Positions 1-25,385 of a stretch of DNA of 32,000 bases are shown here, in pieces; the first letter of the stretch is position 1; every line of letters starts with the position of its first letter. Source of the stretch: Mycolicibacterium smegmatis (lineage in GTDB: Bacteria > Actinomycetota > Actinomycetes > Mycobacteriales > Mycobacteriaceae); NCBI RefSeq assembly GCF_001457595.1, contig NZ_LN831039.1:4440001-4472000 (forward strand), in the 5' to 3' direction. Both the position numbers and the translations under genes were made by a program. Under the pieces are notes generated by a model, which saw only the letters and a program-made list of their open reading frames with translations, had not been told where the DNA came from and searched no databases.

Positions 1-1
1 T

Positions 2-484
2 GTGCTGGTGAACAACGCCGGTGTGGCGCACGTGGCCCCGGCCGAAGAGTTCACCCGCGAACAGTTCGACCGTCTCGTGAACGTCAACATCGGCGGCGTG
101 TTCTGGGCGATCCACGCCGCCATCCCGCATTTCGGCGAAGGTTCGCGGATCATCAACATCGGCAGCATCAACGCCGACCGGGTGCCCGCCCCCAACCTGG
201 GGGTCTACGCGATGACCAAGGGCGCCGTGCAGGCGCTGACCATCGGCCTTGCGCGTGAACTGGGCCCGCGGGGCATCACGATCACCAACGTGCAACCGGG
301 TCCCATCGACACCGACATGAACCCCGCCGACGGCGGTCTCGCCGAGGTCATGACCTCGGTGACGGCGTTGGGGCGCTACGGCCACGCCGGCGACATCGCG
401 GCCGTGGTGAGCTTCCTCGCAGGCCCGGAGTCCGGGTATGTCACGGGCGCGAGCTGGAACGTCGACGGCGGGTACACCGCCTGA
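2..484 (+). CDS. SDR-family oxidoreductase (3-oxoacyl-ACP reductase-like), 5' end cut by window edge
   Basis: The ORF is open to the window start. The translation carries NNAG, the active-site YAMTK (YxxxK) and PGPIDT. Stop TGA at 482-484. Confidence 0.85.
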   Translation: MLVNNAGVAHVAPAEEFTREQFDRLVNVNIGGVFWAIHAAIPHFGEGSRIINIGSINADRVPAPNLGVYAMTKGAVQALTIGLARELGPRGITITNVQPGPIDTDMNPADGGLAEVMTSVTALGRYGHAGDIAAVVSFLAGPESGYVTGASWNVDGGYTA

Positions 485-1546
485 TCACAGCACGCTGGGC
501 GGCGCGGTGGCGGTGTCCTTCAGCCGCGCCTTGAATTGCATTGCGCGGTAGGGCCATCCCGAGTCGGTGTGCCACTGCGACACCACAAGCCCGATTCCGC
601 CCGTGCGGTCCAGGCGCGATCCCGGCAGCACGTAACCGCCGTACAACTGGGCCACGCGGGAGCCCTCGTGGTGCTCGTCGTGCCAGGCGCACCCGAGCAC
701 CGGGGTCTGCACTTGCGTGGTGTGCATGTTGGCCACCGGCGAGTCGACCACGCGATATCCCAGCGCGTACCGCGACGCGAAGAACCCGCCGAGGATCCAC
801 CGGCCGGGTCCCAGGCGGCGGAAACTCAGTTCGCCCCAACGTTCTTCGGCGGGCGTGATGGGGGTGGCGCGTTCGCCCCACTCCCATCGGCGCCCGGTGT
901 ACCCCCAGCTCACGTAACGCGTGCGGTCACCGATGTGGGCGGGACGCACCCGCATGAGGATGATGCCCTGTTTGCGCTGGAAACCCGTCGCGGCCACGTA
1001 CACCCAACCGTCGTCGGGGTCGTGATCCCACGACCAGCACTGGGCGTGCCCGCCGTGCCACCCGGCCGGGAACTTCGCGCGCTCCCCCAGGTGTTCCCAG
1101 CTCACGCCGCAGTCGTCGGACCGCCAGATCTCGGTCCAGATCACGTTGCCGAAGCCGCGGTTGACGATGGCGTGCAGGTACAGCGAATCCCCCACGCGCA
1201 GCAGATCTGACGGGATGACGGTGCTGATCCCGCCCCGGCGCCAGCCCGAGGCCGCGTCGTCGTGGATGTAGTGCCACAGTTGACGCGCGTACCCGGGATC
1301 GGGGCCGCCCGCGCGTTCGTAGACGATTTCGTGGTCGGCGTCCCCGGTGCCGATCAGCACCACCGGCGAACGCCAATCCCCCTGCCCGACACGGTGGCCC
1401 GCGAAGGTGTCGCCGAACACCGAGACGAGCTTGCCGTCCGGTGCGAGCACCGAGGCGCCCAGGTCGGTGCAGGTGACGCCGAACCTGTCGGTGCGGCCCG
1501 GCCCCGTGATGTCGGCGGCCTTGCCGTTGAGCAGCGGGAGCGTCAC
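485..1546 (-). CDS. DUF4185 (GH183-type) protein, bare catalytic domain without signal peptide, predicted cytoplasmic
   Basis: 353 aa. It shares VFGDTFAG, STVIPSD and a Trp-rich beta-propeller-like sequence style with the two other DUF4185 ORFs in this window. An in-frame stop just upstream leaves no room for a signal peptide. GTG start at 1546, 11 nt after the upstream gene's stop. Confidence 0.85.
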   Translation of the reverse strand: MTLPLLNGKAADITGPGRTDRFGVTCTDLGASVLAPDGKLVSVFGDTFAGHRVGQGDWRSPVVLIGTGDADHEIVYERAGGPDPGYARQLWHYIHDDAASGWRRGGISTVIPSDLLRVGDSLYLHAIVNRGFGNVIWTEIWRSDDCGVSWEHLGERAKFPAGWHGGHAQCWSWDHDPDDGWVYVAATGFQRKQGIILMRVRPAHIGDRTRYVSWGYTGRRWEWGERATPITPAEERWGELSFRRLGPGRWILGGFFASRYALGYRVVDSPVANMHTTQVQTPVLGCAWHDEHHEGSRVAQLYGGYVLPGSRLDRTGGIGLVVSQWHTDSGWPYRAMQFKARLKDTATAPPSVL

Positions 1547-1556
1547 CCCGCGCCCA

Positions 1557-2102
1557 CTACGTGCACAGACGCAGGCCCCAGGGCTCGCAGTCGAGCGGAT
1601 AGGTCTTCACCGGCATGGGCAGCGGCTCCTTGAAGGTCAGCGTGAACGGGAACCGGTGGATGGCCGGCGCCAGCCCGCACACCGCGGTGTTGGACACCTC
1701 GCGGGTTCCGGTCAGCGCGACGTCGTCGAAACGATAGGTCTCCACGATCGGCGCCCAGCTGCCGTCGGAGCACTTGATGCCCTCTTTGATGTTCGTGGAG
1801 AACTGCCACATGCCGCCCGCCATCTTGGCGTCGCCGCCGCTGACCCCGGGCGAGCCCTGCACGTGCAGCACGCACGCCACCGGCAGGTACAGCGGTTCAC
1901 GCAGATCCCCGACCACCGGGACGCACGACGGGTAGATGGTCCACGTCGCGGCGCCCAGACCCTCCTGGTTGTAGTTGAAGACGCCCTGGATCACCGGGTC
2001 GGCCTGCGCGGGACCGGCAAACCCGACTCCCACTCCCATCCACAGTCCCATCACGAGTGCGGGCACCGAGGCGATCACTGCAGCCATGCGCTTGAAGGTC
2101 AC
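1557..2102 (-). CDS. Secreted six-cysteine hypothetical protein
   Basis: N-terminus MTFKRMAAVIASVPALVMGLWMGVGVGFAGPAQA-DP is a Sec-type signal with an AXA site. The mature part contains 6 Cys. I recognise no family. No SD precedes the GTG at 2102, so the mRNA may be leaderless; ATG at 2087 is an alternative start. Confidence 0.7.
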   Translation of the reverse strand: MTFKRMAAVIASVPALVMGLWMGVGVGFAGPAQADPVIQGVFNYNQEGLGAATWTIYPSCVPVVGDLREPLYLPVACVLHVQGSPGVSGGDAKMAGGMWQFSTNIKEGIKCSDGSWAPIVETYRFDDVALTGTREVSNTAVCGLAPAIHRFPFTLTFKEPLPMPVKTYPLDCEPWGLRLCT

Positions 2103-2107
2103 AAACG

Positions 2108-3739
2108 GTGAGTATCGCAGCCCCGGTGACGACCGTCACCGGTATGGTCGCCTACGTGTCACCCCGGCGCGCCCGTCGGCGGGGTGATGCAGGGGGGATC
2201 GTGACGACGCGACGTATGGCCGGGATGGCCACAGCGTGGCTCGCCGCTCTCGTGCTGGTGTTCACGGCCTGTTCCACGGGTGAACGGGTCGATCTTGGTG
2301 ACGAGGCGTCGGGCAATCTCATCGCGGCGATCGCAGGTGAGCCCGACCAGCTCGACCCGCAGAAGACCAGCGCGTACTTCTCGTTCGAGGTGCTGGAGAA
2401 CGTGTTCGACACTCTTGTCGAACCCGACGAGAACCTGCAGATGCAACCCGCGCTGGCCGAGTCGTGGGAGGTCAGTCCCGATCAGCTGACGTGGACGTTC
2501 CATCTGCGCGACGGCGTGCGCTGGCACGACGGCACCCCGCTGACCGCCGACGACGTCGTCTACTCCTACCGGCGCATCATCGACGAACAGCTCACCAACG
2601 TCGACAAGTTCAGCGCGGTCACCGACGTCAGCGCGCCCGACCCGGCGACCGTGCGCATCGTGGTGTCCCATCCCACGCCCAACCTGCTGACCAATCTCGG
2701 CGGATTCAAGGGCATGGCGATCGTGCAGCGCGGCAACGTCGAAAGCGGGCAGATCGCCACACATCCCGTCGGGACCGGACCGTTCGCGTTCGCCGGGCGC
2801 AAGAGCGGGGACTCCATCACGCTCAAGGCCAACCCCCACTACTGGGGACCCGAGCCACGGGTGTCCGGGGTGACGTTCCGGTTCATCTCCGAGCCCGCGA
2901 CGGCGCTCTCGGCGCTGCAGGCCGGTGAGATCGACTGGACCGACTCGGTGCCGCCGCAGCGCGTCGCGCAGTTGCGCGACGACGACTCGCTGACGCTCGC
3001 GGTGACACCGAGCAACGACTACTGGTATCTCGCGCTCAACGAGGCCCGTGCACCGTGGAACGACGTGCGCGTGCGCCAGGCGATCGCCTACGGCATCGAC
3101 CGCGATGCGATCGCCACGGCCACCAGTTACCGCACCGCGGCGATCAACCAATTGGCCATCCCCGAGGGCAACCCCTGGTTCACGAGTTACGACCGCTACC
3201 GCTTCGACCTCGACGAGTCCAAGAGGCTCCTCGACGAGGCCGGTGCTCATCCCGAGAACCTCGACATGCTGGTCACCAGCGAGTACCCCGAGACCGTCAC
3301 GGCCGCGCAGATCATCGCCGACAACCTTGCACCGCTTGGCATATCGGTGAACATCCGCACCGTCGACTTCGCGACATGGCTGGACGAACAGAACACCGGC
3401 AACTTCGACATGCTGATGATGGGGTGGCTCGGCAACATCGACCCCGACGACTTCTACTACGCACAGCACCATTCCGACGGAACGAGCAACGCGCAGAAGT
3501 TCTCCGATCCCGAGGTCGACAGGCTGCTCGACGCGGGCCGCGTCGAAACCGACACCGCCGAACGGAAAGACGTCTACGCCAGGGCCGCGACCCGCATCGC
3601 CGACGAGGTCAGCTACATCTACCTGTACAACCCGTCGGTGATCCAGGCGTGGTCCAACGATCTGTCCGGCTACGTCGCACGCCGCGACGGCGCCATCCGG
3701 TTCCGCACGGCCGATCTGGGCCGGGGTGGTCCTGAGTGA
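2108..3739 (+). CDS. ABC transporter substrate-binding lipoprotein, family 5 (peptide/nickel/oligosaccharide type)
   Basis: DppA/OppA-like sequence throughout. Lipobox LVFTAC follows TTRRMAGMATAWLAAL. The maximal ORF starts at GTG 2108, but ATG 2144 or ATG 2216 are more plausible, because 2108 lies only 5 nt from the divergent gene's start and upstream of a 9+9 palindrome. Confidence 0.9.
   Translation: MSIAAPVTTVTGMVAYVSPRRARRRGDAGGIVTTRRMAGMATAWLAALVLVFTACSTGERVDLGDEASGNLIAAIAGEPDQLDPQKTSAYFSFEVLENVFDTLVEPDENLQMQPALAESWEVSPDQLTWTFHLRDGVRWHDGTPLTADDVVYSYRRIIDEQLTNVDKFSAVTDVSAPDPATVRIVVSHPTPNLLTNLGGFKGMAIVQRGNVESGQIATHPVGTGPFAFAGRKSGDSITLKANPHYWGPEPRVSGVTFRFISEPATALSALQAGEIDWTDSVPPQRVAQLRDDDSLTLAVTPSNDYWYLALNEARAPWNDVRVRQAIAYGIDRDAIATATSYRTAAINQLAIPEGNPWFTSYDRYRFDLDESKRLLDEAGAHPENLDMLVTSEYPETVTAAQIIADNLAPLGISVNIRTVDFATWLDEQNTGNFDMLMMGWLGNIDPDDFYYAQHHSDGTSNAQKFSDPEVDRLLDAGRVETDTAERKDVYARAATRIADEVSYIYLYNPSVIQAWSNDLSGYVARRDGAIRFRTADLGRGGPE
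2123..2142. promoter_or_regulatory. Near-perfect 20-bp palindrome CCGGTGACG-ac-CGTCACCGG between divergent operons
   Basis: I read 9-bp perfect arms directly from the sequence. The element sits between the divergent start at 2102 and ATG 2144. It is a candidate operator or 5'-leader hairpin. Confidence 0.45.
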
Positions 3740-4713
3740 CTTCGACGCGACTTCTGGGTAACCACCCGATCGTGCGATTCCTGGCGCAGCGGCTGCTGTA
3801 TTCGGCGGTGGTGCTCGTCGGCGTGCTGATCGTGGTGTTCACGCTGGTGCACCTGGTGCCCGGCGACCCGGTCCGCATCGCGCTGGGCACCCGGTACACC
3901 CCAGAGGCCTACGAGGCGCTGCGCACGGCCAGCGGGATGGACCGGCCCATCGTCGAACAGTTCTTCGGCTACATCGGCTCGGCGTTGACCGGCGACCTGG
4001 GTGTGAGTTTCCGCAACGGCGACCCGGTCACCGTGACGCTGCTGGAACGCTTGCCCGCGACACTGTCGCTGGGGCTGGTGGGCATCCTCATCGCGCTGGT
4101 CATCGCGATCCCGGCCGGCATCTGGTCGGCACTGCGCGAGGGACGTGTCAGCGACGCGATCGTGCGCGTGGCGAGCCAGTTCGGCGTGTCGATCCCCGAC
4201 TTCTGGCTCGGCATCCTCTTGATCGGGCTGTTCGCGTCGGTGCTGGGCTGGTTGCCCACGTCGGGGTACCGTCCGCTGTTCGACGATCCGGGCGGCTGGC
4301 TGCGCCACATCATCCTGCCCGGTCTCACGGTGGGTCTGGTGGCCGGCGCGATCCTGACCCGGTACGTGCGCTCGGCGGTGCTCGAGGTGGCCGCGATGGG
4401 CTACGTGCGCACCGCGCGGTCGAAAGGCCTTCCGCCGCCAGTGGTCACGTTCCGTCACATCGTGCGCAACGCGCTGCTGCCGGTGTTGACGATCACGGGC
4501 ATCCAGCTGGCGACGATCCTCGGTGGGGTGATCGTGGTCGAGGTGGTGTTCGCGTGGCCCGGGCTGGGCCGGCTGGTGTTCAATTCGGTTGCCGCACGCG
4601 ACTATCCGGTGATCCAGGGGGCGGTGCTGCTCATCGCGGTGCTGTTCTTGCTGATCAACCTGCTGGTGGACGTGCTCTACGCGGTCGTCGACCCGAGGAT
4701 CCGGCTGTCATGA
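3736..4713 (+). CDS. ABC transporter permease (DppB/OppB-like)
   Basis: N-terminus IVRFLAQRLLYSAVVLVGVLIVVFTLVHLVPGDP is typical of the family, and the protein has multiple TM segments. Its GTG start overlaps the upstream stop (GTGA). Confidence 0.9.
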   Translation: MTSTRLLGNHPIVRFLAQRLLYSAVVLVGVLIVVFTLVHLVPGDPVRIALGTRYTPEAYEALRTASGMDRPIVEQFFGYIGSALTGDLGVSFRNGDPVTVTLLERLPATLSLGLVGILIALVIAIPAGIWSALREGRVSDAIVRVASQFGVSIPDFWLGILLIGLFASVLGWLPTSGYRPLFDDPGGWLRHIILPGLTVGLVAGAILTRYVRSAVLEVAAMGYVRTARSKGLPPPVVTFRHIVRNALLPVLTITGIQLATILGGVIVVEVVFAWPGLGRLVFNSVAARDYPVIQGAVLLIAVLFLLINLLVDVLYAVVDPRIRLS

Positions 4714-5588
4714 CCGTCACCGAGCAGACCCGCGTCGCGTCGTGGCGGCTGCTGCTGTCGAATCCGGTCACCGCGGTCAGCGCCGCGGTGCTGGTCGTGG
4801 TGGCGGTCGTCGCGCTCACCGCGCAGTGGATCGCGCCGTTCGGCGTCAACGACATCGACGTGCCCAGCGCGCTTCAGGGCCCCGGCGGCACGCACTGGTT
4901 CGGCACCGATGAACTGGGCCGAGACGTGTTCTCCCGCATCCTCGTCGCCATCCAGGCCTCTCTTCGCGTCGCGGTGGTCAGCGTGGCGCTCGCGGCCGTG
5001 GTCGGTGTGACGATCGGCGTCGTCGCGGGGTACCGCGGCGGTTGGCTCGACACCATCGTCATGCGGGTCGTGGACGTCATGTTCGCGTTCCCCGTGCTGC
5101 TCCTGGCGCTGGCCATCGTCGCGATCCTCGGCCCCGGCGTCACCACCACGATGCTCGCGATCGGCATCGTCTACATCCCGATCTTCGCGCGCGTCGCACG
5201 GGCCAGCACGCTGGGCGTGCGGGTGGAACCCTATGTCGCGGTGTCGCGCACCATGGGTACACCCAGCGGCTACATCCTGCGACGGCACATCCTGCCGAAC
5301 ATCGCCGGTCCGTTGATCGTCCAGTTGTCGCTGTCGCTGGCGTTCGCGATCCTCGCCGAGGCGTCGCTGTCGTTCCTGGGCCTGGGAATCCAGCCGCCGC
5401 AGCCGTCGCTGGGCCGGATGATCTACGACGCACAGGGTTTCGTGACGCTCGCGTGGTGGATGGCGGTGTTCCCCGGCGCTGCCATCTTCGTCACGGTGCT
5501 GGCGTTCAACCTGTTCGGCGACGGCCTGCGCGATGTGCTCGATCCCAAGCAGCGCACGCTGATGGAGGCCAAGAGGACCCGGCAATGA
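4710..5588 (+). CDS. ABC transporter permease (DppC/OppC-like)
   Basis: ATG 4710 overlaps the upstream stop (ATGA). Motifs include GTDELGRDVFSR and the EAA-loop region EASLSFLGLG. The track ORF start at 4554 is an Arg/Gly-rich extension overlapping the previous gene. Confidence 0.9.
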   Translation: MTVTEQTRVASWRLLLSNPVTAVSAAVLVVVAVVALTAQWIAPFGVNDIDVPSALQGPGGTHWFGTDELGRDVFSRILVAIQASLRVAVVSVALAAVVGVTIGVVAGYRGGWLDTIVMRVVDVMFAFPVLLLALAIVAILGPGVTTTMLAIGIVYIPIFARVARASTLGVRVEPYVAVSRTMGTPSGYILRRHILPNIAGPLIVQLSLSLAFAILAEASLSFLGLGIQPPQPSLGRMIYDAQGFVTLAWWMAVFPGAAIFVTVLAFNLFGDGLRDVLDPKQRTLMEAKRTRQ

Positions 5589-7165
5589 CGGATCAGAAGA
5601 CGAACGCCCCGGTACTCAGTGTCCGTGACCTCACGGTCGGCATCGGACGACGCGAGATCGTGCATGGGGTGTCGTTCGACGTGCACCGCGAACAGACCGT
5701 GGGCATCGTCGGTGAATCCGGATCCGGGAAGTCGCTGACGGTGCTCGCGGCCACCGGCCTGCTCGACGCGCCAGGTGCGGTGGTCAGGGGCACCAGCACC
5801 CTGGCCGACGGCTCCCAACTCGTCGGCGCATCGGCGCGGTTGCTGCGTTCGGTGCACGGCGGGCGCATCGGGTTCGTGTTCCAGGACCCGGGCACGTCGC
5901 TGAATCCGCTGCTGACGCTCGAGCGTCAGATCACCGAATCGCTTGAGACGCACCGCAAGATGTCGCGCCGGCAGGCCCGCACCCGCGCCGGTGAGCTGCT
6001 GGAGGCCGTCGGGTTGCCACCTCAGCGACTCGATGCCTACCCGCACCAGTTGTCCGGCGGGCAGCGGCAGCGCGTCATGATCGCGATCGCCCTCGCGTGC
6101 GACCCGGAACTGCTCATCGCCGACGAACCCACCACCGCACTGGATGTCACGACACAGGCCCAGATCGTCGACCTGGTGGCCGATTTGCAGCGCGACTTCG
6201 GCGCGGCCGTGGTGTGGATCAGCCACGATCTCGGCGTCATCGGCCAGGTCGCCGACGAGGTGACGGTGCTGCGCGACGGTGACGCGGTCGAACAGGCCCC
6301 CGTTATGGACGTGTTCGACCGGCCCCGCCACGAGTACACCAGGGAACTGCTGGCCGCGCGTCCCCGCGTCGACGACGCCGGTCCCCCGGCGCCGCCCGAT
6401 GATGCCGGGATCCTGTTGGACGTCGCCGATCTGGAGGTCCGGTACGCCGATGTCGCAGCGGTGAAGGACGTGTCGTTCACGATCCGGCGCGGCACCACGC
6501 TGGGCCTGGTCGGCGAGTCCGGTTCGGGCAAGTCGACCGTGGCGGCCGCGCTGACCGGTCTGTCCGAACCGTCCGCGGGCACGGCCACACTCGACGGCGC
6601 CGACGTGTTCGGCGGTGGACGCGAGCTGCGCAGGCGGATCAGCCTGGTGTTCCAGGACCCGTTCAGTTCACTGAACCCGCGGGCGCGGGTCGGTACGACG
6701 ATCGGTGAGCCATTGCAGGTGCACGGCCTGGCCAAGGGCAGGCGGGCACGCGCCGAGCGGGTCGCCGAGCTGCTCGAACTGGTCGGGCTGCCCGCCGATT
6801 TCGCGTCCCGGTACCCGCACGAGCTGTCCGGTGGCCAGCGTCAGCGGGTCAGCATCGCACGAGCACTGGCCACCGAGCCGGAGCTGCTCATCCTCGACGA
6901 ATCGACGGCCTCGCTGGATGTGTCGGTGCAGTCCCGCGTCCTGGACCTGCTGGCCGATCTGCAACGCGAGCTCGGCCTGGCCTACCTGTTCATCGCGCAT
7001 GACCTGGCGGTCGTGCACCGCATGAGCCACGACGTACTCGTGCTGCGCGACGGTGAGGTGGTCGAGTACCGGCCCGCGGCGGAGTTGTTCGCCGCACCGC
7101 AGCACGAGTACACCCGCACGCTGCTGGCCGCGGTTCCGCCGCTGCGGCCGCATGAGAAGGTCTAG
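5585..7165 (+). CDS. Fused double-NBD ABC ATPase (DppD-DppF type in one polypeptide)
   Basis: ATG 5585 overlaps the upstream stop (ATGA). Two copies each of Walker A GESGSGKS, signature LSGGQRQR and Walker B (LLIADEPTTALD, LLILDESTASLD). The track start at 5042 is an out-of-context extension. Confidence 0.9.
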   Translation: MTDQKTNAPVLSVRDLTVGIGRREIVHGVSFDVHREQTVGIVGESGSGKSLTVLAATGLLDAPGAVVRGTSTLADGSQLVGASARLLRSVHGGRIGFVFQDPGTSLNPLLTLERQITESLETHRKMSRRQARTRAGELLEAVGLPPQRLDAYPHQLSGGQRQRVMIAIALACDPELLIADEPTTALDVTTQAQIVDLVADLQRDFGAAVVWISHDLGVIGQVADEVTVLRDGDAVEQAPVMDVFDRPRHEYTRELLAARPRVDDAGPPAPPDDAGILLDVADLEVRYADVAAVKDVSFTIRRGTTLGLVGESGSGKSTVAAALTGLSEPSAGTATLDGADVFGGGRELRRRISLVFQDPFSSLNPRARVGTTIGEPLQVHGLAKGRRARAERVAELLELVGLPADFASRYPHELSGGQRQRVSIARALATEPELLILDESTASLDVSVQSRVLDLLADLQRELGLAYLFIAHDLAVVHRMSHDVLVLRDGEVVEYRPAAELFAAPQHEYTRTLLAAVPPLRPHEKV

Positions 7166-7167
7166 GG

Positions 7168-7908
7168 ATGACCGACTTTCATGGGAAGACCGCGTTGGTG
7201 ACGGGTGCCTCGGCAGGCCTCGGGGCGGCGGTGGCGAAATTGCTGGCGGCGCGCGGGGCCTCGGTGTTCGGGATCGCCCGCGACGCCGACCGGATGGCCG
7301 AGGTGTTCACCGAGGTGCCCGGCGGCAGGTATGCCTCCGTGGACGTCTCGTCGTCGCAGGCGTGCGACGAGGCGGTCGGACAGTGCGTCGAGCAGTTCGG
7401 TCAGCTGGACATCCTGATCAACGTCGCGGGCTTTCATCAGATGCGCCATACGGTTTCGGTGACCGACGAGGACTGGGCCAAGGACCTCGCGGTCAACCTC
7501 AATGGCCCGTTCTTCCTGAGCCGTGCGGCGCTGCCGCACCTGTTGCAGGCCGGTGGCAACATCGTCAATGTCGCCTCCATCGCCGGCGTCGAGGGCGAGG
7601 TGTACTCGGCCGGCTACTGCGCGGCCAAACACGGGCTGGTGGGGTTGACCCGCGCCTTGGCGGTCGAGTTCACCAAGGAGCGGCTGCGGGTCAACGCGGT
7701 GTGCCCTGGCGGCATGCTGACCGCGCAGACCACCGAGTTCGCCGCGCCCGAGAACGCCGACTGGGATCTGATCATGCGGATCGCGGCCCCGCGGGGCTTC
7801 ATGGACGTCGCCGATGTCGCGAAGACCATCGCGTTCCTGGCGAGCGACGATGCGGCGGCCGTGCACGGCGCGGTGTACATCGTCGATGCCGGCAAGACCG
7901 CCGGCTGA
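7168..7908 (+). CDS. SDR-family oxidoreductase, last gene of the ABC importer operon
   Basis: TGASAGLG glycine motif, NVAG, catalytic YCAAK. It starts 2 nt after the ATPase stop, with GAGAAGG upstream. Confidence 0.85.
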   Translation: MTDFHGKTALVTGASAGLGAAVAKLLAARGASVFGIARDADRMAEVFTEVPGGRYASVDVSSSQACDEAVGQCVEQFGQLDILINVAGFHQMRHTVSVTDEDWAKDLAVNLNGPFFLSRAALPHLLQAGGNIVNVASIAGVEGEVYSAGYCAAKHGLVGLTRALAVEFTKERLRVNAVCPGGMLTAQTTEFAAPENADWDLIMRIAAPRGFMDVADVAKTIAFLASDDAAAVHGAVYIVDAGKTAG

Positions 7909-8015
7909 GCACACACATCCGTCCGATCTCTTCACCTTGCGTTCCTGCGCGCGCACGATAGAAACGGAAGTGCAAGGACGTTTCCGACCATTAAGTCCGA
8001 GGAAGGGAGCGAACG

Positions 8016-8258
8016 ATGAAGGCCAAGGTCGGCGATTTCCTGGTCGTCAAGGGCGCGACCACCGACCGGCACGATCAGCATGCCGAGATCATCGGAGTGC
8101 GCAGTGACGACGGGTCTCCCCCGTTCGTCGTGCGCTGGCTGTCCGACGGGCACGAGGCCACGGTGTATCCCGGCCCCGATGCGCTGATCATGTCCCCCGA
8201 GGAGCACCAGCGCGCCACTGAACGCGCCGCTGCCCACGCGGGTGCGTCAGCGCACTAG
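8016..8258 (+). CDS. DUF1918-like small protein
   Basis: 80 aa starting MKAKVGDFLVVKG...AEIIGV, the sequence style I associate with DUF1918. Strong SD GGAAGGGAG lies 6 nt upstream of the ATG. Confidence 0.65.
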   Translation: MKAKVGDFLVVKGATTDRHDQHAEIIGVRSDDGSPPFVVRWLSDGHEATVYPGPDALIMSPEEHQRATERAAAHAGASAH

Positions 8259-9605
8259 CTAGCCGGTCGAAAGGGACGTGCGCATCAGCATCACGCTGTA
8301 GTCCGACCAACGTGACAGCGTGAAGTACAGGTCCTTGCCCTCCGACCACGGATGGATGTAGGGCGCATAGATGCCACCGGGGACGGCCGTGGAGCTGACG
8401 ATCGTCTTCGCGCGGCTCCACGGCCCCTCCGGTTTGTCGGCCGTGCGCATCACCACCGAGCTGGTGGTGTTGGTGTAGAGCATGACGAATTTCTTGAGGT
8501 GGTCGTTCCACGCCACCGACATCTCGCTGCCGGGTGCCCACACCACCTGGAGGGCGAGGAACGGGAAACCCTTGATCCACCCGAACGGCGTGAAGTACTC
8601 GTAGGCCGACTTGTCGGCCACGGCCGTCTCCACGACGCGGTACAAGAATGGCATGCCGCCGCGCCCGGCGCCGGTGCTGTAGGCGTAGACGTAGCCGTTG
8701 TGGCGCAGGTACGCCGCCATCTGGAAGTTCTGGTCACCCCACACGAACGGCACACCCGGCACGGTGTTGAACCAACTGGGCCGGATGCTCGTCGCGGGCA
8801 CGGTCCACGTCTCGCCGTTGTCGCCTGAGACCGCCACCGCGGAGAAGTTGGTCGACCACTGCCCGGGGGCGCCCCACCTGCTCACGGACATGAAGTTGAC
8901 GTATTGCGTTGTGCCGACCGCGATTCCCGCGGTGGGGATCACCGTGACCTCGGTGCCGGCCAGGCCAAGGCTCTTGATCACCTGCCGGGAGAAGTTGGGC
9001 CGCGCCGCGTCCACCGGGGATCCGGCGTAGATGTTGCCGGGTACCGGGTTGGGGATGCTCATGCCGTCGGCGAGGTTGCGGTCGGCGCTGCGGAACAGCG
9101 TGTTCTTGCGCCACTCCTGTGCTGCGACATTGCAATTGCCGAAGGTGTCGCCGAACGCGATGAGTACCTGACGGTTGGCTCCGGTCTGGCCGTTGTCCCA
9201 CATGATGCCCAGGTCGGCACCGGAGATCCCGAAGCGCGAATAGCTGTCCGAGTTGGGTCCGGTGACCCAGCCGACCGTGGTGGCCGTCGACGCCGCCGGT
9301 TCTGCGGCCGCGCGGGCGGCGGTGTTGAGTGCGACCGCGGTGTCCTTGGCCTCTTCGGGTGTGCTGGCCGTCTGCACGGGTTTGCGGCCGATCGGCAGAT
9401 GCAGGACCGGCAGTTTCGAGATGATGTCGGGCATCGACGGGGTCAGACCCCGCGCCGAGGCGTTCGGCGTCGGCACCGAGCAGGGATCGGCTGCGGCGGG
9501 CGGGGCGCCGACGAGCCCGGCAACCAACCCGCCCACCAGCGTGGTTGCCACCGCGGAGACGACGCACGCACGCGACGTCGATGCCAGTCGACGAAATGCC
9601 GGCAT
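8259..9605 (-). CDS. Secreted DUF4185 (GH183-type) protein
   Basis: 448 aa. Signal peptide MPAFRRLASTSRACVVSAVATTLVGGLVAGLVGAPPAAA-DP. Motifs GADLGIMWD, AFGDTFGN, VTVIPTAG, YAPYIHPWS and SRWSDYSVMLMRT are shared with ORF 11593-13764. Confidence 0.85.
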   Translation of the reverse strand: MPAFRRLASTSRACVVSAVATTLVGGLVAGLVGAPPAAADPCSVPTPNASARGLTPSMPDIISKLPVLHLPIGRKPVQTASTPEEAKDTAVALNTAARAAAEPAASTATTVGWVTGPNSDSYSRFGISGADLGIMWDNGQTGANRQVLIAFGDTFGNCNVAAQEWRKNTLFRSADRNLADGMSIPNPVPGNIYAGSPVDAARPNFSRQVIKSLGLAGTEVTVIPTAGIAVGTTQYVNFMSVSRWGAPGQWSTNFSAVAVSGDNGETWTVPATSIRPSWFNTVPGVPFVWGDQNFQMAAYLRHNGYVYAYSTGAGRGGMPFLYRVVETAVADKSAYEYFTPFGWIKGFPFLALQVVWAPGSEMSVAWNDHLKKFVMLYTNTTSSVVMRTADKPEGPWSRAKTIVSSTAVPGGIYAPYIHPWSEGKDLYFTLSRWSDYSVMLMRTSLSTG

Positions 9606-9663
9606 GACACACCTTTCGAGCTGACGTAGCGGGTGCAGCCACGCTGCCGCCCCGACACGCGAC

Positions 9664-9698
9664 CAGGTGTGACAATAGTTGCTACAGAGACAGGTGTG
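9664..9698 (-). repeat. Two direct copies of CAGGTGTG (CACACCTG in gene sense), 27 bp apart, upstream of the secreted DUF4185 gene
   Basis: The copies are at 9664-9671 and 9691-9698. In mRNA sense they are complementary to AGGTGTG at 9614-9608, which overlaps the SD (GAAAGGTGTGTCATG). The AT-richer spacer between them contains TATTGT (gene sense). Confidence 0.4.
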
Positions 9699-9703
9699 GT
9701 TTG

Positions 9704-9735
9704 CCGGTCACGATCCGGTACGGATCCGTGATCGG
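9704..9735 (-). terminator. Stem-loop downstream of the USP gene (candidate factor-independent terminator without U-tract)
   Basis: TCACGATCCG-gta-CGGAT(c)CGTGA gives 10 bp with one bulge. Flanking CCGG/TCGG pairs (3 pairs plus one G-T/C-A position) extend the stem. It begins 20 nt after the stop at 9755. Confidence 0.35.
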
Positions 9736-9754
9736 TCCGAGACGTGCCCGGCGA

Positions 9755-10573
9755 TCAGCCTCCCGGCACCACCAGCACGGGCCGGAATGTGCGCTGCAGT
9801 GTGGCTCCCGCGACGCTGCCGAGCAGGACCTTCTTGAGCGCCGACCGGCCCCGCGACCCGACCACGATTGCCGCGGCGCGCTGTTCGTCGGCGAACGCGA
9901 CCAGTGCGTCGGCCGTGGCGCCCGCACCGGACCCGCGGAACCGCTTCACGTGGTGCGTGGCGTCTACGCCCTCGGCGTCGCCGTCGTCCACCGCGGCCGA
10001 AACCACGGTGCGCGTGGGGAACAACTGCTCGGCGGCCTTGATCGCGCGGTCGGCGCCGGCCGACCCGTCGACGCCCACCACCACTGGGCCGTCCACCACG
10101 GCCTGGTGTTCGGCCGAGAGCATGTGCTGGGAGACCACGAGCACCGGACGCGGCGCGTGGTGCACGACGAGATCGGACACGCTGCCGATCTTCGACTCGG
10201 ATGCGCCGATACCGCGGGCACCCACGACCATCACGTCGGGTTGCAGTTCCTCGCCGACCTGCGCCAGCCCGAGACCCTCCCCGGCCCAGGTCCGTTTGAC
10301 CAGAGGCTCGGCGGTCCACCCGGCCGCGCGCGCCAACGTCACCCCCAGGTCGACCAGGCGCGCCGACTCCCCTTCGCTCTCCCGGTCCACGAGGTCGATC
10401 AACTCGTCGACGTTGCGCGCCGAATGGCGCAACCGGGCGCGCAACCCCCTGCTGCCGAACGGCGGTGTGGACAGGTACACGATCACCGCCTCCGCGGCGG
10501 GGAACAACTCGCTGGAAGTCCTGATCGCGCTGTTGGCTGACAGGGACCCGTCGTAGCCGACCACAATCTTCAT
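9755..10573 (-). CDS. Universal stress protein, tandem USP domains
   Basis: Two USP-like halves, MKIVVGYDGS... and PVVVGVDGSAGADRA.... The second half has the ATP-binding-type motif GSRGRSALKKVLLGSV. Confidence 0.85.
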   Translation of the reverse strand: MKIVVGYDGSLSANSAIRTSSELFPAAEAVIVYLSTPPFGSRGLRARLRHSARNVDELIDLVDRESEGESARLVDLGVTLARAAGWTAEPLVKRTWAGEGLGLAQVGEELQPDVMVVGARGIGASESKIGSVSDLVVHHAPRPVLVVSQHMLSAEHQAVVDGPVVVGVDGSAGADRAIKAAEQLFPTRTVVSAAVDDGDAEGVDATHHVKRFRGSGAGATADALVAFADEQRAAAIVVGSRGRSALKKVLLGSVAGATLQRTFRPVLVVPGG

Positions 10574-10757
10574 GCGCGTCCTCTTCCGTCGATCCGTTGC
10601 GTCCAGCCTAAATCGTCGGCAACTTCGCCTGTGGGGTTATGCCCGCCCGCAGCAAAAGCGAACGGATGCTCACAACATCAGACCCGACCATCCGCGGGAC
10701 CGCCGAATCTCTCGGGGCGACAACATGTCGAGCCGATCAGGCCGCGATCAGGCACCA

Positions 10758-11333
10758 TCAGACGAAGAGCCCGGCCATCTTCGCGGTGTCGTAATAGCCG
10801 ATGACGTCCACGATCTGGTCTCCGGCGACGCGCATGACCCAGCAATACTGCATGCTGGCGTCGGAGCCGTTGGTGCCGTGGACTCCCTCGGTATGGAAAC
10901 GCACCGCCGCCCAGTCGCCGTCGACGATCATCTGATCGAGTTGGGGACGCATGGGCGTCGCGAGGTGATCATGGAGCCGGCTCAACACCTTCTCGCGGTA
11001 CTCGGTTTTGCCGTGGTACTGCCCGGCCACCGGCGAGGTACCGGTCGCGGTGAAGGTGACGTCATCGGACAGTCGGTCCAGGAAGGTCTCGCCGAACCCG
11101 GTCTGTGAAGTCGTCGCGAACACGTCCTCCAGGACGGCCCTGGTATGGGCGCCAGGCTGCTCCGGCGGCGTCTCGTTTGCGCAACCTGAGAGAGCGAGGG
11201 CGCCCGCCGCCAGCACAGCGACAGCTGGCGGGACCCTGCCGGCGGTTGCACGAACCAGTCCGGCGTTGATCCTCCGGGCATCCCGGCTCGATGGGTTGCC
11301 CCGTGAAAATCTTTGTAGGCCCGGCACTCTCAT
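10758..11333 (-). CDS. NTF2/SnoaL-like fold lipoprotein
   Basis: Lipobox LALSGC, followed by a SnoaL-like domain of about 130 aa (DDVTFTATG...DGDWAAVRFH...YCWVMRVAGDQIVDVIGYYD). The maximal ORF reaches 11384. I prefer the internal Met at 11333 because the extension is not signal-like. Confidence 0.7.
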   Translation of the reverse strand: MRVPGLQRFSRGNPSSRDARRINAGLVRATAGRVPPAVAVLAAGALALSGCANETPPEQPGAHTRAVLEDVFATTSQTGFGETFLDRLSDDVTFTATGTSPVAGQYHGKTEYREKVLSRLHDHLATPMRPQLDQMIVDGDWAAVRFHTEGVHGTNGSDASMQYCWVMRVAGDQIVDVIGYYDTAKMAGLFV

Positions 11334-11356
11334 CACCACTCCTGGACTCGACAATT

Positions 11357-11412
11357 CCAACCGACAAGTTGGAGTGTGGCACACGTCTCACCAAACAACA
11401 ACTGGCCAGTTG
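11357..11412. promoter_or_regulatory. Two inverted-repeat sites of form CAAC-N6-GTTG in a divergent promoter region
   Basis: CCAAC-cgacaa-GTTGG is at 11357-11372. The perfect 14-bp palindrome CAACTGGCCAGTTG is at 11399-11412. Their centres are 41 bp apart, and a T6 run follows. Confidence 0.45.
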
Positions 11413-11536
11413 GAATTTTTTCGATCGCCCACGGTTCCCAGACTGACGAGCGGGCAGGGCCTCGGCCGTCGCCGAGGGTTCGCCTGTTCCGGCCGGGTTC
11501 AGCAACTCATGACACTTTGTCGCGGCAATCGCAAAA

Positions 11537-11582
11537 CCTTTGCCGTCGGCCTGCGATACTTCTCGTCGGCCGACGACAAAGG
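11537..11582 (+). promoter_or_regulatory. 5'-leader stem able to sequester the Shine-Dalgarno of the 723-aa DUF4185 gene
   Basis: CCTTTGCCGTCGGC (11537-11550) pairs with GCCGACGACAAAGG (11569-11582) at 13 of 14 positions, with an 18-nt loop. The 3' arm contains the AAAGG of the SD, 8 nt upstream of ATG 11593. The competing local palindrome TCGTCGGCCGACGA lies at 11563-11576. Confidence 0.4.
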
Positions 11583-11592
11583 GGTTGCGTGA

Positions 11593-13764
11593 ATGGGATC
11601 GACGACAGGCGGCGCCGCGTACGTGGGGCGCATCGGAGCACTGGCTGTGGCACTGGGCATCGGCGCAGCACTGACCACCGGAACCGGTGTGGCATGGGCC
11701 GACGATTCGGGCGCGTCCGGGGGCTCGACGTCCTCGTCGTCTTCGGCTTCTGATTCCTCTTCGTCGTCTGCCGGCGGCAGCTCCGGCTCCGCATCGGGAG
11801 GCGCCGACGCGGCGAAGCCCCGCAAACCCGGAGTGACCAAGCCGCGGATCCAACCGACGGGCAAGATCGCCGAATCTCTCAAGAAGACCGCCAAGGCCGT
11901 CGAGGGCGCGGTCGCCGACGCGCACAAACGCGCCCAGCAGTCGGCCGCGCAGCAGGCCGAGAAGCGGGCCGAACGGCGCGCCAAGCTGCGGGCGCAGATC
12001 CGTCCAGGCAAGGACACCGACAAGCAGGCCCCCGAGAAACAGGCCGGGAACGAGGCGAAGAACGCCGCCCAACCCGCCACCAAGACGCAGCGGCAGCTCC
12101 CGGCGGCGCCGGCCGTGAAGGTGCCCGACGTGATCACCTCGGTGCGGGCACGGTCCGACGAGGTGGCCAGGGAGATCACCACCGGCGTCACCGGTATCCG
12201 GACCGCCATCGAGAACGCGGCCCCGAGGATCGCACTGCCGGACCTGCGGCCCACGACCAACCTCGCACGCCCGGTGACACCCGTGGCGCTCAAAGCCGCC
12301 CAGCCCGTCCAGGTTTCGCCGCCGCGGCCGACAATCACCGGTCTGGTGCGTGGATTGCTCACCGCCGCAGCAGGTTTCTCGCCGCGGGCTGCCACCGCAC
12401 CGGTGGCTCCGGCCCCCTCGCCTGCCGCATGGGCGTTGCTTGCGTTCGCGCGCCGCGAGTTCGAGCGGGCGTTCACCCCGGGAGCCGCCACCGCGCTCGC
12501 CGCGCCCGCGATCACCACGTCGGCCGTCACATCGGCAGCCGTGGTGAATCCGCTTCCGGGCCGGTTGGACTCGGTGCCGGTGGGTTGGGTGACAGGGGTG
12601 TCCAACCCGAGCGGCAACTGGCCGCAGACCAACAACACCGCGGGCTTCGACATCTGGGGCACCGATCTGGGCATCATGTGGGACGGCGGTGAGTGGAACG
12701 GGCAGCGGTTCGTCCACACGGCGTTCGGCGACACGTTCAGCGGACCCAACATGAGCGGGTGGTGGCGCTCCAACGTCCTGCTGATCAGCACCGACAACGT
12801 CCTGAGCGACGGACTGGGCCTGGTGCAGACCGGAACGGCATACCAGTTCATCCCGGCGTCGGGCCGAAACCTGTTCGGGCTCTTCGGCGGTTCGGAGGTC
12901 ACCGTCATCCCGACCGCGGGAGTGCAGATCGACGGCACGCAGTACGTCAACTACATGTCGGTGCGCTCGTGGGACACCCCGGGCCGCTGGACCACCAACT
13001 TCTCGGCGATCTCGGTGTACGACCCGAGCACCGACACGTGGGTGCTCGCGCCGTCGACCATCCGCTCGGCGGGGTGGTTCCGCTCCAGCACGCTGTATGT
13101 GCCCGGCAGCCAGAACTTCCAGCAGGCCGCCTATGTCCTGCAGCCCGAGGATCAGGTGGGTGAGGACGGTATCCGCTACCTGTATGCGTTCGGAACCCCC
13201 TCGGGCCGTGCCGGATCGGCGTATCTGTCACGCGTGCCCGAGGACGCGGTGACCGACCTGTCGAAGTACGAGTACTGGGACGGCAACCGGTGGGTCACCG
13301 GCAACGCCGCGGTGGCCGCGCCGGTCATCGGCGACTCGACGCGCTCGACGGGCCTGTTCGGCTTCATCGTCGACTGGGCCAACGACCCGAACGTGCTGGG
13401 CGGTTATCTGGGCGGCCTGGTGGGCGCCAAGACCGGCGGCAATGTCAGTGAGTTGTCGGTGCAGTACAACGAATACCTCGGCAAGTACGTGGTGCTCTAC
13501 GGTGACGGCAACAACAACATCCAGATGCGCATCGCCGACCGGCCCGAGGGCCCGTGGTCGGATCCGATCGAGCTCGCCAGTTCGGCCGACTACCCGGGCC
13601 TGTATGCGCCGATGATCCATCCGTGGTCGGGCACCGGGATGCTCGAAGACGACAACGGCGACCCGGATGTGAACAACCTGTACTGGAACATGTCGCTGTG
13701 GGGCGACTACAACGTGGTGCTCATGCAGACCGACCTGTCGGGCCTGAAAACCGTTGCGGTGTGA
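11593..13764 (+). CDS. Large secreted DUF4185 (GH183-type) protein with Ser-rich, Lys/Ala-rich and Pro/Ala-rich N-terminal extension
   Basis: 723 aa. Signal-like N-terminus ending GTGVAWA-DD, then about 290 aa of low complexity, then the domain from VPVGWVTG (about nt 12570) with GTDLGIMWD, AFGDTFSG, VTVIPTAG, YAPMIHPWS and SLWGDYNVVLMQT. Confidence 0.85.
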   Translation: MGSTTGGAAYVGRIGALAVALGIGAALTTGTGVAWADDSGASGGSTSSSSSASDSSSSSAGGSSGSASGGADAAKPRKPGVTKPRIQPTGKIAESLKKTAKAVEGAVADAHKRAQQSAAQQAEKRAERRAKLRAQIRPGKDTDKQAPEKQAGNEAKNAAQPATKTQRQLPAAPAVKVPDVITSVRARSDEVAREITTGVTGIRTAIENAAPRIALPDLRPTTNLARPVTPVALKAAQPVQVSPPRPTITGLVRGLLTAAAGFSPRAATAPVAPAPSPAAWALLAFARREFERAFTPGAATALAAPAITTSAVTSAAVVNPLPGRLDSVPVGWVTGVSNPSGNWPQTNNTAGFDIWGTDLGIMWDGGEWNGQRFVHTAFGDTFSGPNMSGWWRSNVLLISTDNVLSDGLGLVQTGTAYQFIPASGRNLFGLFGGSEVTVIPTAGVQIDGTQYVNYMSVRSWDTPGRWTTNFSAISVYDPSTDTWVLAPSTIRSAGWFRSSTLYVPGSQNFQQAAYVLQPEDQVGEDGIRYLYAFGTPSGRAGSAYLSRVPEDAVTDLSKYEYWDGNRWVTGNAAVAAPVIGDSTRSTGLFGFIVDWANDPNVLGGYLGGLVGAKTGGNVSELSVQYNEYLGKYVVLYGDGNNNIQMRIADRPEGPWSDPIELASSADYPGLYAPMIHPWSGTGMLEDDNGDPDVNNLYWNMSLWGDYNVVLMQTDLSGLKTVAV

Positions 13765-13765
13765 A

Positions 13766-16726: not shown

Positions 16727-16747
16727 GTGTTCTCCTTGTCGGGACTG

Positions 16748-17035: not shown

Positions 17036-17180
17036 CAGGTTTCCTCGCTGTCCGATTGGGGTGAAGACACGGCCAACCTTACCGAGGAGTGCGGGTTCAG
17101 GCGCGGTAGTTGGATAACAAAACAGCCTCTACGGATCACGGTGTAGCGCCGCACAGGCTGTACACGGGGTGGCGGCGCGC

Positions 17181-18458: not shown

Positions 18459-18518
18459 CAACGACTCGCGACCATAACTGCACTCATGGCTGCGTAGTCT
18501 AGGACCACACCCCGTTCG

Positions 18519-20557: not shown

Positions 20558-20569
20558 GGTGTCTCCTAA

Positions 20570-22422: not shown

Positions 22423-22433
22423 GAATGCCTTTC

Positions 22434-23087: not shown

Positions 23088-23088
23088 G

Positions 23089-25271: not shown

Positions 25272-25385
25272 CTATCCCACCTTTCGCTGCCTCGATGACA
25301 CGGGGGAAGTATGGCCATCTGAGGAGGCGCTCGTCGCGGTGAACCGGCCAAACCGGGTGAGGCGTACAGTCGGGCCGTGCGCCGT

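Follow-up and report, generated by a model that had tools for sequence, protein, structure and literature searches.

A predicted arabinanase without a signal peptide beside a conserved ABC importer in Mycolicibacterium smegmatis, with a possible role in arabinan salvage

Mycobacterial arabinan is assembled outside the membrane, is essential, and is the target of ethambutol, while its turnover is poorly understood. That M. smegmatis has an arabinanase activity of its own has been known since 1999. An arabinanase that stays in the cytoplasm would have a substrate only if arabinan fragments enter the cell or the enzyme leaves it. What, then, is such an enzyme for? The question is raised by a 32,000-nucleotide stretch of the Mycolicibacterium smegmatis genome (contig NZ_LN831039.1, positions 4,440,001 to 4,472,000; hereafter the window), where three genes of glycoside hydrolase family GH183 (domain DUF4185) lie within 13.3 kb and one of them, GH183_1, encodes a bare domain without a signal peptide. 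We found that the conserved unit at this locus is a block made of GH183_1, a small exported protein (sec176), a divergent ATP-binding cassette (ABC) importer with a lipoprotein solute-binding protein (SBP), and a short-chain dehydrogenase (SDR), and that the cluster of three GH183 genes is specific to M. smegmatis. Beyond the mycobacteria, sequence comparison places GH183_1 closest to the arabinanase domains carried by endolysins of actinophages. The main features, in window coordinates, are as follows.

485 to 1546, minus strand: GH183_1 (MSMEG_4352), 353 amino acids (aa), bare DUF4185/GH183 domain without signal peptide, AraH2/EatA/phage-endolysin type
1557 to 2102, minus strand: sec176 (MSMEG_4353), 176-181 aa, orphan secreted six-Cys protein, start GTG 2102 or ATG 2087
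2111 to 2139, minus strand: conserved sigma-A-like putative promoter of the sec176-GH183_1 operon, from an alignment of 45 orthologous intergenic regions
2201 to 3739, plus strand: SBP5 (MSMEG_4354), family-5 solute-binding lipoprotein, first gene of the divergent ABC operon (PF00496, E 1.2e-102)
3736 to 7165, plus strand: ABC importer core (MSMEG_4355-4357), with permeases at 3736-4713 and 4710-5588 and a fused double ATPase at 5585-7165
7168 to 7908, plus strand: SDRb (MSMEG_4358), classical short-chain dehydrogenase, last gene of the ABC operon (adh_short, E 4.6e-52)
8259 to 9605, minus strand: GH183_2 (MSMEG_4360), 448 aa, signal peptide, linker of ~65 aa, EndoMA1-like GH183 domain
11593 to 13764, plus strand: GH183_3 (MSMEG_4365), 723 aa, signal peptide, ~300 aa of low complexity, EndoMA1-like GH183 domain with an internal insertion

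Parts of this locus have been catalogued before, and the gene order of the MSMEG_4352-4365 region fits the MSMEG numbers used in three earlier papers (PMC10115798, PMC6985099, PMC4694148). The GH183_2 protein is encoded without a single difference on a 6.94-Mb chromosome (CP082846.1), where the genes follow one another as in the window. Al-Jourani et al. (2023, PMC10115798) counted five DUF4185 genes in M. smegmatis, including MSMEG_4352, 4360, and 4365 as uncharacterised, and set the accessory copies, these three among them, aside as “showing greater diversity.” MSMEG_4354-4356 were described as a COG0747/0601/1173 ABC system (PMC6985099), and MSMEG_4355-4358 as permeases, an ATPase, and a “hydroxybutyrate dehydrogenase” (PMC4694148). 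Earlier work has thus already covered the family with its activity, the occurrence of these genes in M. smegmatis, GH183 lysins in phages, and the logic of a secreted endo-enzyme plus an ABC importer. In the literature searched, we found no description of a GH183 clade of endolysin type, without signal peptides, that is conserved across more than 130 mycobacterial species, nor of the GH183_1 operon with its orphan exported protein and its conserved pairing with a SigF-dependent importer. The papers searched also yielded no mycobacterial route of arabinan recycling, in line with what a first, sequence-only reading of this DNA had stated.

The family assignment made by that reading stood up to searches against Pfam, to sequence matches in the PDB, and, for GH183_1, to a fold search. 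All three open reading frames (ORFs) lie above the PF13810 (DUF4185) gathering score of 39.5 bits (GH183_1, 236.7 bits, E 4.8e-70; GH183_2, 368.8 bits, E 2.9e-110; GH183_3, 296.3 bits, E 3.4e-88), while NCBIfam offered no model for the three proteins. The shared motifs that it had quoted are all readable in the translations: VFGDTF and STVIPS in GH183_1; AFGDTF and VTVIPT in both GH183_2 and GH183_3; and, in these two respectively, GADLGIMWD and GTDLGIMWD, YAPYIHPWS and YAPMIHPWS, and WSDYSVMLM and WGDYNVVLM. The catalytic aspartates of the family (nucleophile and acid/base) are D39/D56 in Rv3707c (PMC10115798) and D206/D228 in EatA (PMC13444075), and both of their motifs, (T/A)DLG and FGDTF, are kept in all three window proteins. 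GH183_2 carries GADLG...FGDTF and GH183_3 carries GTDLG...FGDTF; in GH183_1 the two residues are D28 (TDLG) and D45 (FGDTF), which correspond to ADLG and FGDSF in the alignment with EatA and to TDLG and FGDT in that with the endolysin of Gordonia phage GMA6. We predict with high confidence that all three are GH183 endo-α-D-arabinofuranases.

Structural matches point the same way. GH183_2 matches EndoMA1 (8hhv_A) at E 1.8e-62 over residues 106-445 and GH183_3 does so at E 1.8e-38, which suggests that both would hydrolyse arabinan internally. The best PDB sequence matches of GH183_1 by phmmer were EatA (9mz5_B, E 1.4e-22) and M. tuberculosis AraH2 (8an0, E 6.5e-21). Its AlphaFold2 (AF2) model, with a predicted template modelling (TM) score (pTM) of 0.82 and a mean predicted local distance difference test score (pLDDT) of 77, has as top Foldseek matches EndoMA1 (8hhv, E 3.9e-14) and AraH2 (8an0, E 1.8e-13, TM 0.78 on the target). 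The model is the five-bladed β-propeller of EndoMA1, AraH2, and EatA, with pLDDT below 50 in residues 9-29 and 47-59, which hold the catalytic motifs. The three proteins had been called paralogues, which is right as far as family membership goes and too close a term for their kinship: GH183_2 and GH183_3 share 37% identity in an alignment that is gapped around residues 582-640, and GH183_1 and GH183_2 are 23% identical over a partial alignment. By these comparisons, the genes are two deep subfamilies accreted at one locus, and neither a tandem family nor recent paralogues.

The kinship of GH183_1 with phage enzymes came from several searches. A tblastn search against 50,697 phage records, with matches required to reach at least 80% coverage, returned 36 records with up to 59% identity. 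The best were C-terminal modules of Gordonia phage “lysin A” proteins (57-59% identity; for example DalanDe gp55, 1,064 aa). GH183_1 is also 53% identical to residues 699-1029 of the GMA6 endolysin (Orf45, 1,087 aa, followed by a holin), and this domain, “PhageGH4185,” is an endo-D-arabinanase acting on mycobacterial arabinogalactan (Al-Jourani et al., PMC10115798). Based on that identity, GH183_1 is likely an endo-D-arabinanase as well. In PHROGs, the “endolysin” family phrog_28089 matched GH183_1 at E 1.7e-125, against E 6e-12 for GH183_2, whose closest phage matches were at most 31% identical. Among 1.84 billion cluster representatives searched with HMMER, 424 GH183_1-related clusters were found at E <= 0.001; after the mycobacterial cluster P0361 (68% identity), the nearest were proteins of 1,066, 1,117, and 1,151 aa with the domain at or near the C-terminus, and the more remote members of the clade were a mix of forms with Tat/Sec signals and bare forms without them. 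GH183_1 is therefore like the domain of GMA6 and other actinophage LysA proteins in its whole-domain identity (53-59%), catalytic motifs, and lack of a signal peptide. It differs in context, since the phage domain is the C-terminal module of a multidomain lysin of ~1,060-1,090 aa beside a holin, whereas GH183_1 is a stand-alone chromosomal gene with conserved, non-phage neighbours. The marks of a lysis cassette (fusion to peptidoglycan-hydrolase modules, an adjacent holin, a phage or prophage) are absent from GH183_1.

M. agri has a variant of its own (locus L052, 3050-6992). Its GH183_1 orthologue, 71% identical, is fused to an N-terminal helix-turn-helix (HTH_23) domain in a 424-aa ORF and lies between two other genes, one for an M23 endolysin-like protein without a signal peptide (phrog_880, E 1e-83) and one for a protein with three LysM domains and an esterase domain (PF00756). 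The trio resembles a phage lysis cassette with hydrolases for all three wall layers; no other orthologue has lysin-like neighbours. HTH-fused GH183 versions form sizeable database clusters (P0233, P0240, P0361), and we rejected the fusion as a general feature because it is restricted to an M. agri-type subclade.

The three architectures described in the sequence-only reading were also found here, with signal peptides called from sequence reading and a hydropathy scan. In GH183_1, 14 residues precede the domain, GTG 1546 is the first start after an in-frame stop, the upstream gene is 10 nucleotides (nt) away, and the hydropathy scan revealed no hydrophobic N-terminus. Nor is there room for a signal peptide in its orthologues: at each of 80 loci, the frame ahead of the gene either is closed or runs into sec176 in a different frame, and longer database models add only non-hydrophobic residues or an HTH domain. 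We considered and discarded a hidden signal peptide, as the upstream frame is closed in M. smegmatis and elsewhere consists of an Arg-rich, out-of-frame overlap with sec176. A fusion of sec176 and GH183_1 by read-through or frameshift was likewise discarded, as the two genes are in different frames and lie anywhere from 2 to 95 nt apart, depending on the species. In one metagenome bin (L014, about 9390-11041), the sec176 signal peptide is in frame with GH183_1 via ~200 out-of-frame residues; with its disrupted sec176, this case is probably a frameshift or an assembly error and not a real fusion. At the other end of the protein, most GH183_1 orthologues extend past the Pfam domain with a conserved tail, ...DT(x)5-7 P-x-D-P-(I/V)-N-L, in place of which the M. 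smegmatis protein has APPSVL (window 485-526).

The other two enzymes are built for export. GH183_2 opens with an RR-containing n-region, then a hydrophobic core and AAA/D, after which come the ~65-aa linker and the domain at 106-445. GH183_3 has a hydrophobic core and AWA/D, and its domain begins at about residue 346, after a region of ~300 aa that is first Ser-rich, then Lys/Ala/Gln/Arg-rich, and then Ala/Pro/Thr-rich. The GC content at third codon positions (GC3) across this long N-terminal region is 0.70-0.92, which marks it as real coding sequence. In its signal peptide and long Pro/Ala-rich N-terminal region, GH183_3 is like the two-domain DUF4185 proteins and the extended Rv3707c (PMC10115798). 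Relative to GH183_2, it also carries a Gly/Leu-rich insertion of ~55 aa at residues ~582-640 (window about 13336-13510), which is why its Pfam and PDB matches are split into two stretches. We predict with high confidence that GH183_2 and GH183_3 are exported accessory enzymes.

To delimit the conserved unit, one genome per species was scanned, giving 132 GH183_1 relatives, of which 80 loci were kept (67-83% identity), all from Mycobacteriaceae or unclassified bins. Window proteins were mapped onto these loci by tblastn, and orthologues were split at 72% identity into a Mycolicibacterium-type group at or above this value and a group below it that includes M. celatum, M. kyorinense, and M. shimoidei. 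The counts for the two groups are as follows.

sec176 directly upstream of GH183_1: 49/52 at >=72% identity, 3/27 at <72%
SBP and both permeases, divergent: 39/45 at >=72%, 2/22 at <72%
SDRb upstream: 41/45 at >=72%, 3/22 at <72%
SDRa, convergent downstream: 38/53 at >=72%, 1/27 at <72%
GH183_2 within 10 kb: 5/45 at >=72%, no figure at <72%

A genetic link between the hydrolases and the family-5 ABC operon, for which the sequence-only reading had asked, is thus present for GH183_1, as divergent adjacency in 39/45 species with close orthologues. Conservation of the neighbourhood in other mycobacteria holds for the GH183_1 block and fails for the exported enzymes, given the scarcity of GH183_2 and the occurrence of GH183_3 next to the block in M. 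smegmatis loci only. The flanks beyond the block (Usp, DUF1918, GH183_2, kinase) are variable. In Mycobacterium sp. NS-7484 and GA-1841, the gene order is formamidase-kinase-Usp-SDRb-ABC, which identifies GH183_3 (with a SnoaL-like gene) and GH183_2 (with a DUF1918 gene) as extra genes of M. smegmatis at this site. The combination of extracellular enzymes, importer, and cytoplasmic copy seen by the earlier reading therefore holds in its parts (two proteins with signal peptides, one without) and not as one conserved three-enzyme system. GH183_2 and GH183_3 are lineage-specific additions. Their clustering with GH183_1 is not due to chance: by a rough estimate, the probability that 3/5 DUF4185 genes fall within 13.3 kb of a genome of ~7 Mb is about 4e-5.

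Directly upstream of GH183_1, on the same strand and 10 nt away in M. smegmatis (2-16 nt in most species), lies sec176. It has a signal peptide ending in AQA/D and no lipobox, and its family invariants are six Cys residues and a PSCVPVVGDLREPL motif. We detected 165 homologues; the named ones all come from mycobacteria, and no member carries a Pfam domain. The protein itself had no Pfam, NCBIfam, PHROG, or phage match. Its AF2 model has eight β strands at a pLDDT of 76, with the invariant motif (VVGDLREPL) in a low-confidence loop (pLDDT 56 for residues 61-70). Foldseek returned nothing below E 0.06 in the PDB or BFVD, and the weak matches were lipocalin- and avidin-like barrels. The PDB copy used for sec176 ends on 2026-04-08, and EatA was missing from the fold results of GH183_1, so the Eat structures discussed below were probably not covered by this fold search. 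A sequence profile of the sec176 family matched no PDB chain at E <= 10, EatA-complex entries included.

On the other side of the intergenic region, the importer genes are tightly packed, with all starts and stops overlapping by 4 nt and SDRb starting 3 nt after the ATPase stop. Their Pfam domains are BPD_transp_1, OppC_N, two ABC_tran, and oligo_HPY. The SBP lipobox (LVFTA-C) was read in the translation, and the start at 2201 was set by a 512-aa, 100% identical cluster representative. The SBP fell below every NCBIfam equivalog cut-off, namely those for nickel, oligopeptide, dipeptide, glutathione, and staphylopine binders. The position of Arg355 of E. coli DppA, which we take to be a peptide-terminus anchor, is S/T/N/G in all 13 aligned SBP family members. 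DppA Asp408, which forms a salt bridge to the amino terminus of the peptide (PMC3295651), falls on a one-residue gap in the window SBP and 12 orthologues (GWLG-NIDPD vs GWTGDNGDPD). The missing anchor residues argue against a classical peptide binder, while saying nothing positive about arabinan. Top PDB matches of the SBP were 5u4o (an unnamed SBP), AgaA 6hlx, and AapF 7kz8 (depositors' names), with 6tfq also among the top structures. All that a word-indexed protein search retrieved for the SBP were orthologues at 80% identity or more, which gave no clue to the ligand. SDRb received no specific equivalog or structural assignment and appears as a generic classical SDR.

Regulatory signals were read from the intergenic region between the two units. 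Upstream of sec176 on the minus strand, a -35 element GTGACG (2139-2134) and a -10 element GATACT (2116-2111) are separated by a 17-nt spacer. This is the best-conserved block among the 45 orthologous intergenic regions, ending 7-12 nt before the sec176 GTG start; in M. smegmatis it ends 8 nt before GTG 2102. Its sequence and position suggest a sigma-A-like promoter giving a leaderless or very short-leader mRNA. A generic scan found no promoter-like site in window 1-14000. Overlapping the proposed -35 element is a perfect 9-2-9 palindrome, CCGGTGACG-AC-CGTCACCGG (window 2123-2142), which is present in M. smegmatis and not in the intergenic regions inspected from other species; it could be a lineage-specific operator or chance. 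Toward the SBP gene, many orthologous intergenic regions (e.g. L022, L041) contain the SigF consensus GTTT-N17-GGGTA, and no good copy was found in M. smegmatis window 2140-2200. Transcripts of MSMEG_4355-4358 are lower by 2.9-3.5 log2 (about 8- to 11-fold) in a sigF mutant in the second of two conditions (PMC4694148), which we take to be stationary phase.

How might these parts work together? The answer that we favour, tentatively and short of calling it probable, is that the GH183_1 block and the exported GH183_2 and GH183_3 serve the salvage of arabinan fragments. In this proposal, GH183_2 and GH183_3 would cut the arabinan of arabinogalactan or lipoarabinomannan as accessory envelope enzymes, alongside the housekeeping AraH1 and AraH2. 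The SBP would capture the released oligosaccharides and the ABC transporter would carry them into the cell, mainly under SigF control in stationary phase; GH183_1 would then shorten the imported fragments in the cytoplasm. The SDR or SDRs may act on released D-arabinose, and sec176 may be a periplasmic accessory of the uptake step. Salvage is favoured by an importer that is conserved next to GH183_1, by an SBP that does not look like a peptide binder, by SigF dependence, and by the precedent of a Microbacterium locus. The bolder claim that the block is the first endogenous D-arabinan salvage pathway of mycobacteria, with an enzyme of phage-lysin lineage in the cytoplasm and sec176 as a new periplasmic glycan-handling protein, is in our view doubtful.

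The precedent is the D-arabinan locus of Microbacterium arabinogalactanolyticum, which encodes EndoMA1/2, the exo-enzymes ExoMA1 (GH172) and ExoMA2 (GH116), an ABC importer, an isomerase, and a kinase (PMC10509167). As in that locus, M. smegmatis has secreted EndoMA1-like GH183 enzymes near an ABC importer and a signal-less glycosidase presumed to act on imported oligosaccharides; the secreted endo-enzymes and the four-gene importer all lie within 13 kb. The two differ in that the intracellular enzyme is an endo-type GH183 here and GH172/GH116 exo-enzymes there, that isomerase and kinase genes are present there and not in the window, and that the substrate would be the cell's own wall in M. 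smegmatis and that of prey in Microbacterium. Another likeness is to the LpqY-SugABC system of trehalose recycling (cited in PMC10115798 and PMC8035080), which pairs a lipoprotein SBP with an ABC importer for a wall-derived sugar, as proposed here, and has an SBP of a different family. The established mycobacterial GH183 endo-D-arabinofuranases are AraH1 and AraH2, both predicted to be Sec-exported (PMC13444075). Two M. tuberculosis/M. smegmatis pairs are conserved, Rv1754c/MSMEG_2107 and Rv3707c/MSMEG_6255 (PMC10115798), and we infer that these are AraH1 and AraH2. They have PF13810 and the two catalytic Asp motifs in common with the window enzymes, and differ from GH183_1 in their predicted export.

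A number of observations weigh against salvage. An endo-acting enzyme alone would not yield monosaccharide, and the window contains no exo-enzymes: GH172, GH116, and D-arabinose isomerase or kinase were all absent from the Pfam-scanned ORFs of the 32 kb, the rest of the genome not having been searched. The best matches of the SBP are opine, peptide, and nickel binders, family 5 mostly carrying opines, peptides, and nickel, and its family (PF00496) is not that of the Microbacterium SBP (SBP_bac_8, PF13416). The phage-endolysin affinity of GH183_1 provides an alternative reason for its missing signal peptide. Each GH183 gene belongs to a transcription unit of its own; the units occupy both strands, with Usp, SnoaL-like, DUF1918, and SDR genes between them. 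The two divergent units of the block have different promoter types and no conserved shared operator that we could see, and a text search of the SigF regulon paper (PMC4694148) turned up none of MSMEG_4352-4354. Orthologues of GH183_1 below 72% identity mostly stand alone (ABC genes at 2/22, sec176 at 3/27); in M. celatum, for example, the neighbours are TetR, DUF427, SDR, and GNAT genes. Five close orthologues (L011, L012, L036, L038, L042) have sec176-GH183_1 without the importer; in L012 and L036 the sequence stops ~1 kb upstream, and the importer may lie beyond it. Conversely, two independent assemblies (L087, 8001-8855; L088, 4246-5104) retain the importer, sec176, and SDRa but lack exactly GH183_1, between sec176 and SDRa. 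From these cases, the coupling of the block members is loose. Part of the synteny, all within one genus, could also come from common ancestry. The remodelling-plus-recycling system suggested by the sequence-only reading is thus only partly supported: it gains from the conserved importer adjacency and loses from the lack of exo-enzymes, the loose coupling, and the stand-alone distant orthologues.

Among the alternatives, one takes the phage affinity at face value. GH183_1 would be the cell-encoded counterpart of a phage endolysin module, harmless in the cytoplasm and acting on arabinogalactan only after non-classical release, for instance when part of the population lyses or through a holin-like pore or vesicles. 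Its role would be that of an autolysin or of a weapon against kin or competitors, and its adjacency to the importer would be incidental. This would explain the 53-59% identity, over 95% of the length of GH183_1, to the C-termini of holin-adjacent Gordonia phage endolysins, the strength of the phrog_28089 match, the multidomain proteins of 1,066-1,151 aa among the nearest non-mycobacterial representatives, and the cassette-like trio of M. agri. It also accommodates the stand-alone orthologues below 72%, including those of slow growers such as M. celatum, which need no importer. However, the conserved block contains no holin-like or phage structural gene, and the enzyme occupies a fixed chromosomal locus in more than 50 species at 70-83% identity, with a housekeeping-type look and a promoter that appears constitutive (sigma-A-like). 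The adjacency of the importer and the SDR in 39-41/45 species is hard to call incidental. We consider this alternative unlikely.

A second alternative denies any joint system: the locus would be a variable region that gathers wall hydrolase genes, and the ABC-SDR unit would import an unrelated solute (opine-like, peptide-like, or a metal chelate), with the three arabinanases working independently of that transporter. The separate transcription units with unrelated genes between them fit this view, as do the absence of GH183_2 and GH183_3 from most orthologous loci, the opine, peptide, and nickel binders among the best SBP matches, and the nitrogen/amine catabolism genes in the rest of the window. 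So does the finding that every pairwise combination of block members occurs somewhere. It does not explain why the block is kept while its flanks reshuffle, or why SDRb stays directly beside sec176 in two loci where the ABC genes are gone (L038, L066). The presence of 3/5 GH183 genes within 13 kb is also unlikely by chance, and a signal-less arabinanase would have no known cytoplasmic substrate unless one is imported. On balance, we rate this explanation as improbable.

The last alternative models sec176 and GH183_1 on the Eat system, in which the GH183 toxin EatA is secreted by ESX-4, with TapA1/TapA2 and the lipoprotein inhibitor EatI, a 10-strand β-sandwich (PMC13444075). In this model, sec176 would be an inhibitor that shields the producer's arabinogalactan from GH183_1-type enzymes of its own, of phages, or of competitors. 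The likeness lies in a small exported β protein encoded beside a GH183 gene without a Sec signal, and in EatA as the best PDB sequence match of GH183_1; the two genes are taken as co-transcribed given their short gap in most species, sec176 is small, exported, disulfide-rich, and, in its model, all-β with the invariant VVGDLREPL in a low-confidence loop, and proteinaceous inhibition of GH183 has a precedent (PMC13444075). The gene arrangements differ, with two tapA genes 5′ and the lipoprotein inhibitor 3′ in Eat, and one exported non-lipoprotein upstream and a convergent SDR gene 3′ here; moreover, the N-terminal helical type VII secretion (T7SS)-targeting domain of EatA (about 180-210 aa) is missing from GH183_1, and GH183_2 and GH183_3 have Sec-type signals. 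We regard the inhibitor model as very unlikely, because 24/27 distant GH183_1 orthologues have no adjacent sec176, which is unexpected for an enzyme-immunity pair, GH183_1 comes without a secretion domain or accompanying tapA-like genes, sec176 lacks the lipobox of EatI and its profile matches no EatA-complex chain, and sec176 persists with the importer where GH183_1 has been lost.

The locus provides easily deleted candidates in a model organism, namely an importer, a probably cytoplasmic arabinanase, and an exported partner, and so makes salvage directly testable. A signal-less enzyme conserved in more than 130 mycobacterial species should also interest researchers of phage lysins and the cell wall, as a salvage enzyme or as a latent autolysin alike. 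If the block imports something unrelated, the finding reduces to three accessory GH183 genes that were already catalogued.

Two further features lie between the GH183 genes.

8016 to 8258, plus strand: DUF1918 gene (MSMEG_4359, number inferred)
9755 to 11384, minus strand: universal stress protein (Usp) and SnoaL-like genes

All three GH183 genes meet a convergent stop codon at a distance of 0-1 nt, that of SDRa (484/485), of the DUF1918 gene (8258/8259), and of a Ser/Thr kinase gene (13764/13766), which means that the convergent transcripts must overlap. A generic promoter and terminator scan found no terminator-like site at these three junctions, and overall it found fewer terminator-like sites than in shuffled controls. 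At the SDRa junction, the gap in other species is ~25-30 nt. Rfam had no match in the window.

One published numbering disagrees with ours. MSMEG_4357 and MSMEG_4358 appear as an encapsulin and a cysteine desulfurase in PMC11659603, which conflicts with the ATPase and SDR found here and with the SigF regulon paper, so we set that assignment aside; it is probably a locus-tag mix-up. The remainder of the window, from 15470 to 31116, looks like a region of nitrogen/amine catabolism without an evident link to the GH183 genes. Its ORFs encode a formamidase, a PucR regulator, a Rieske/VanA-type oxygenase and reductase, a polysaccharide-deacetylase-family protein, an arginase-family enzyme, two SDRs, an amino-acid permease, an isochorismatase, and an SbmA/BacA-type ABC protein.

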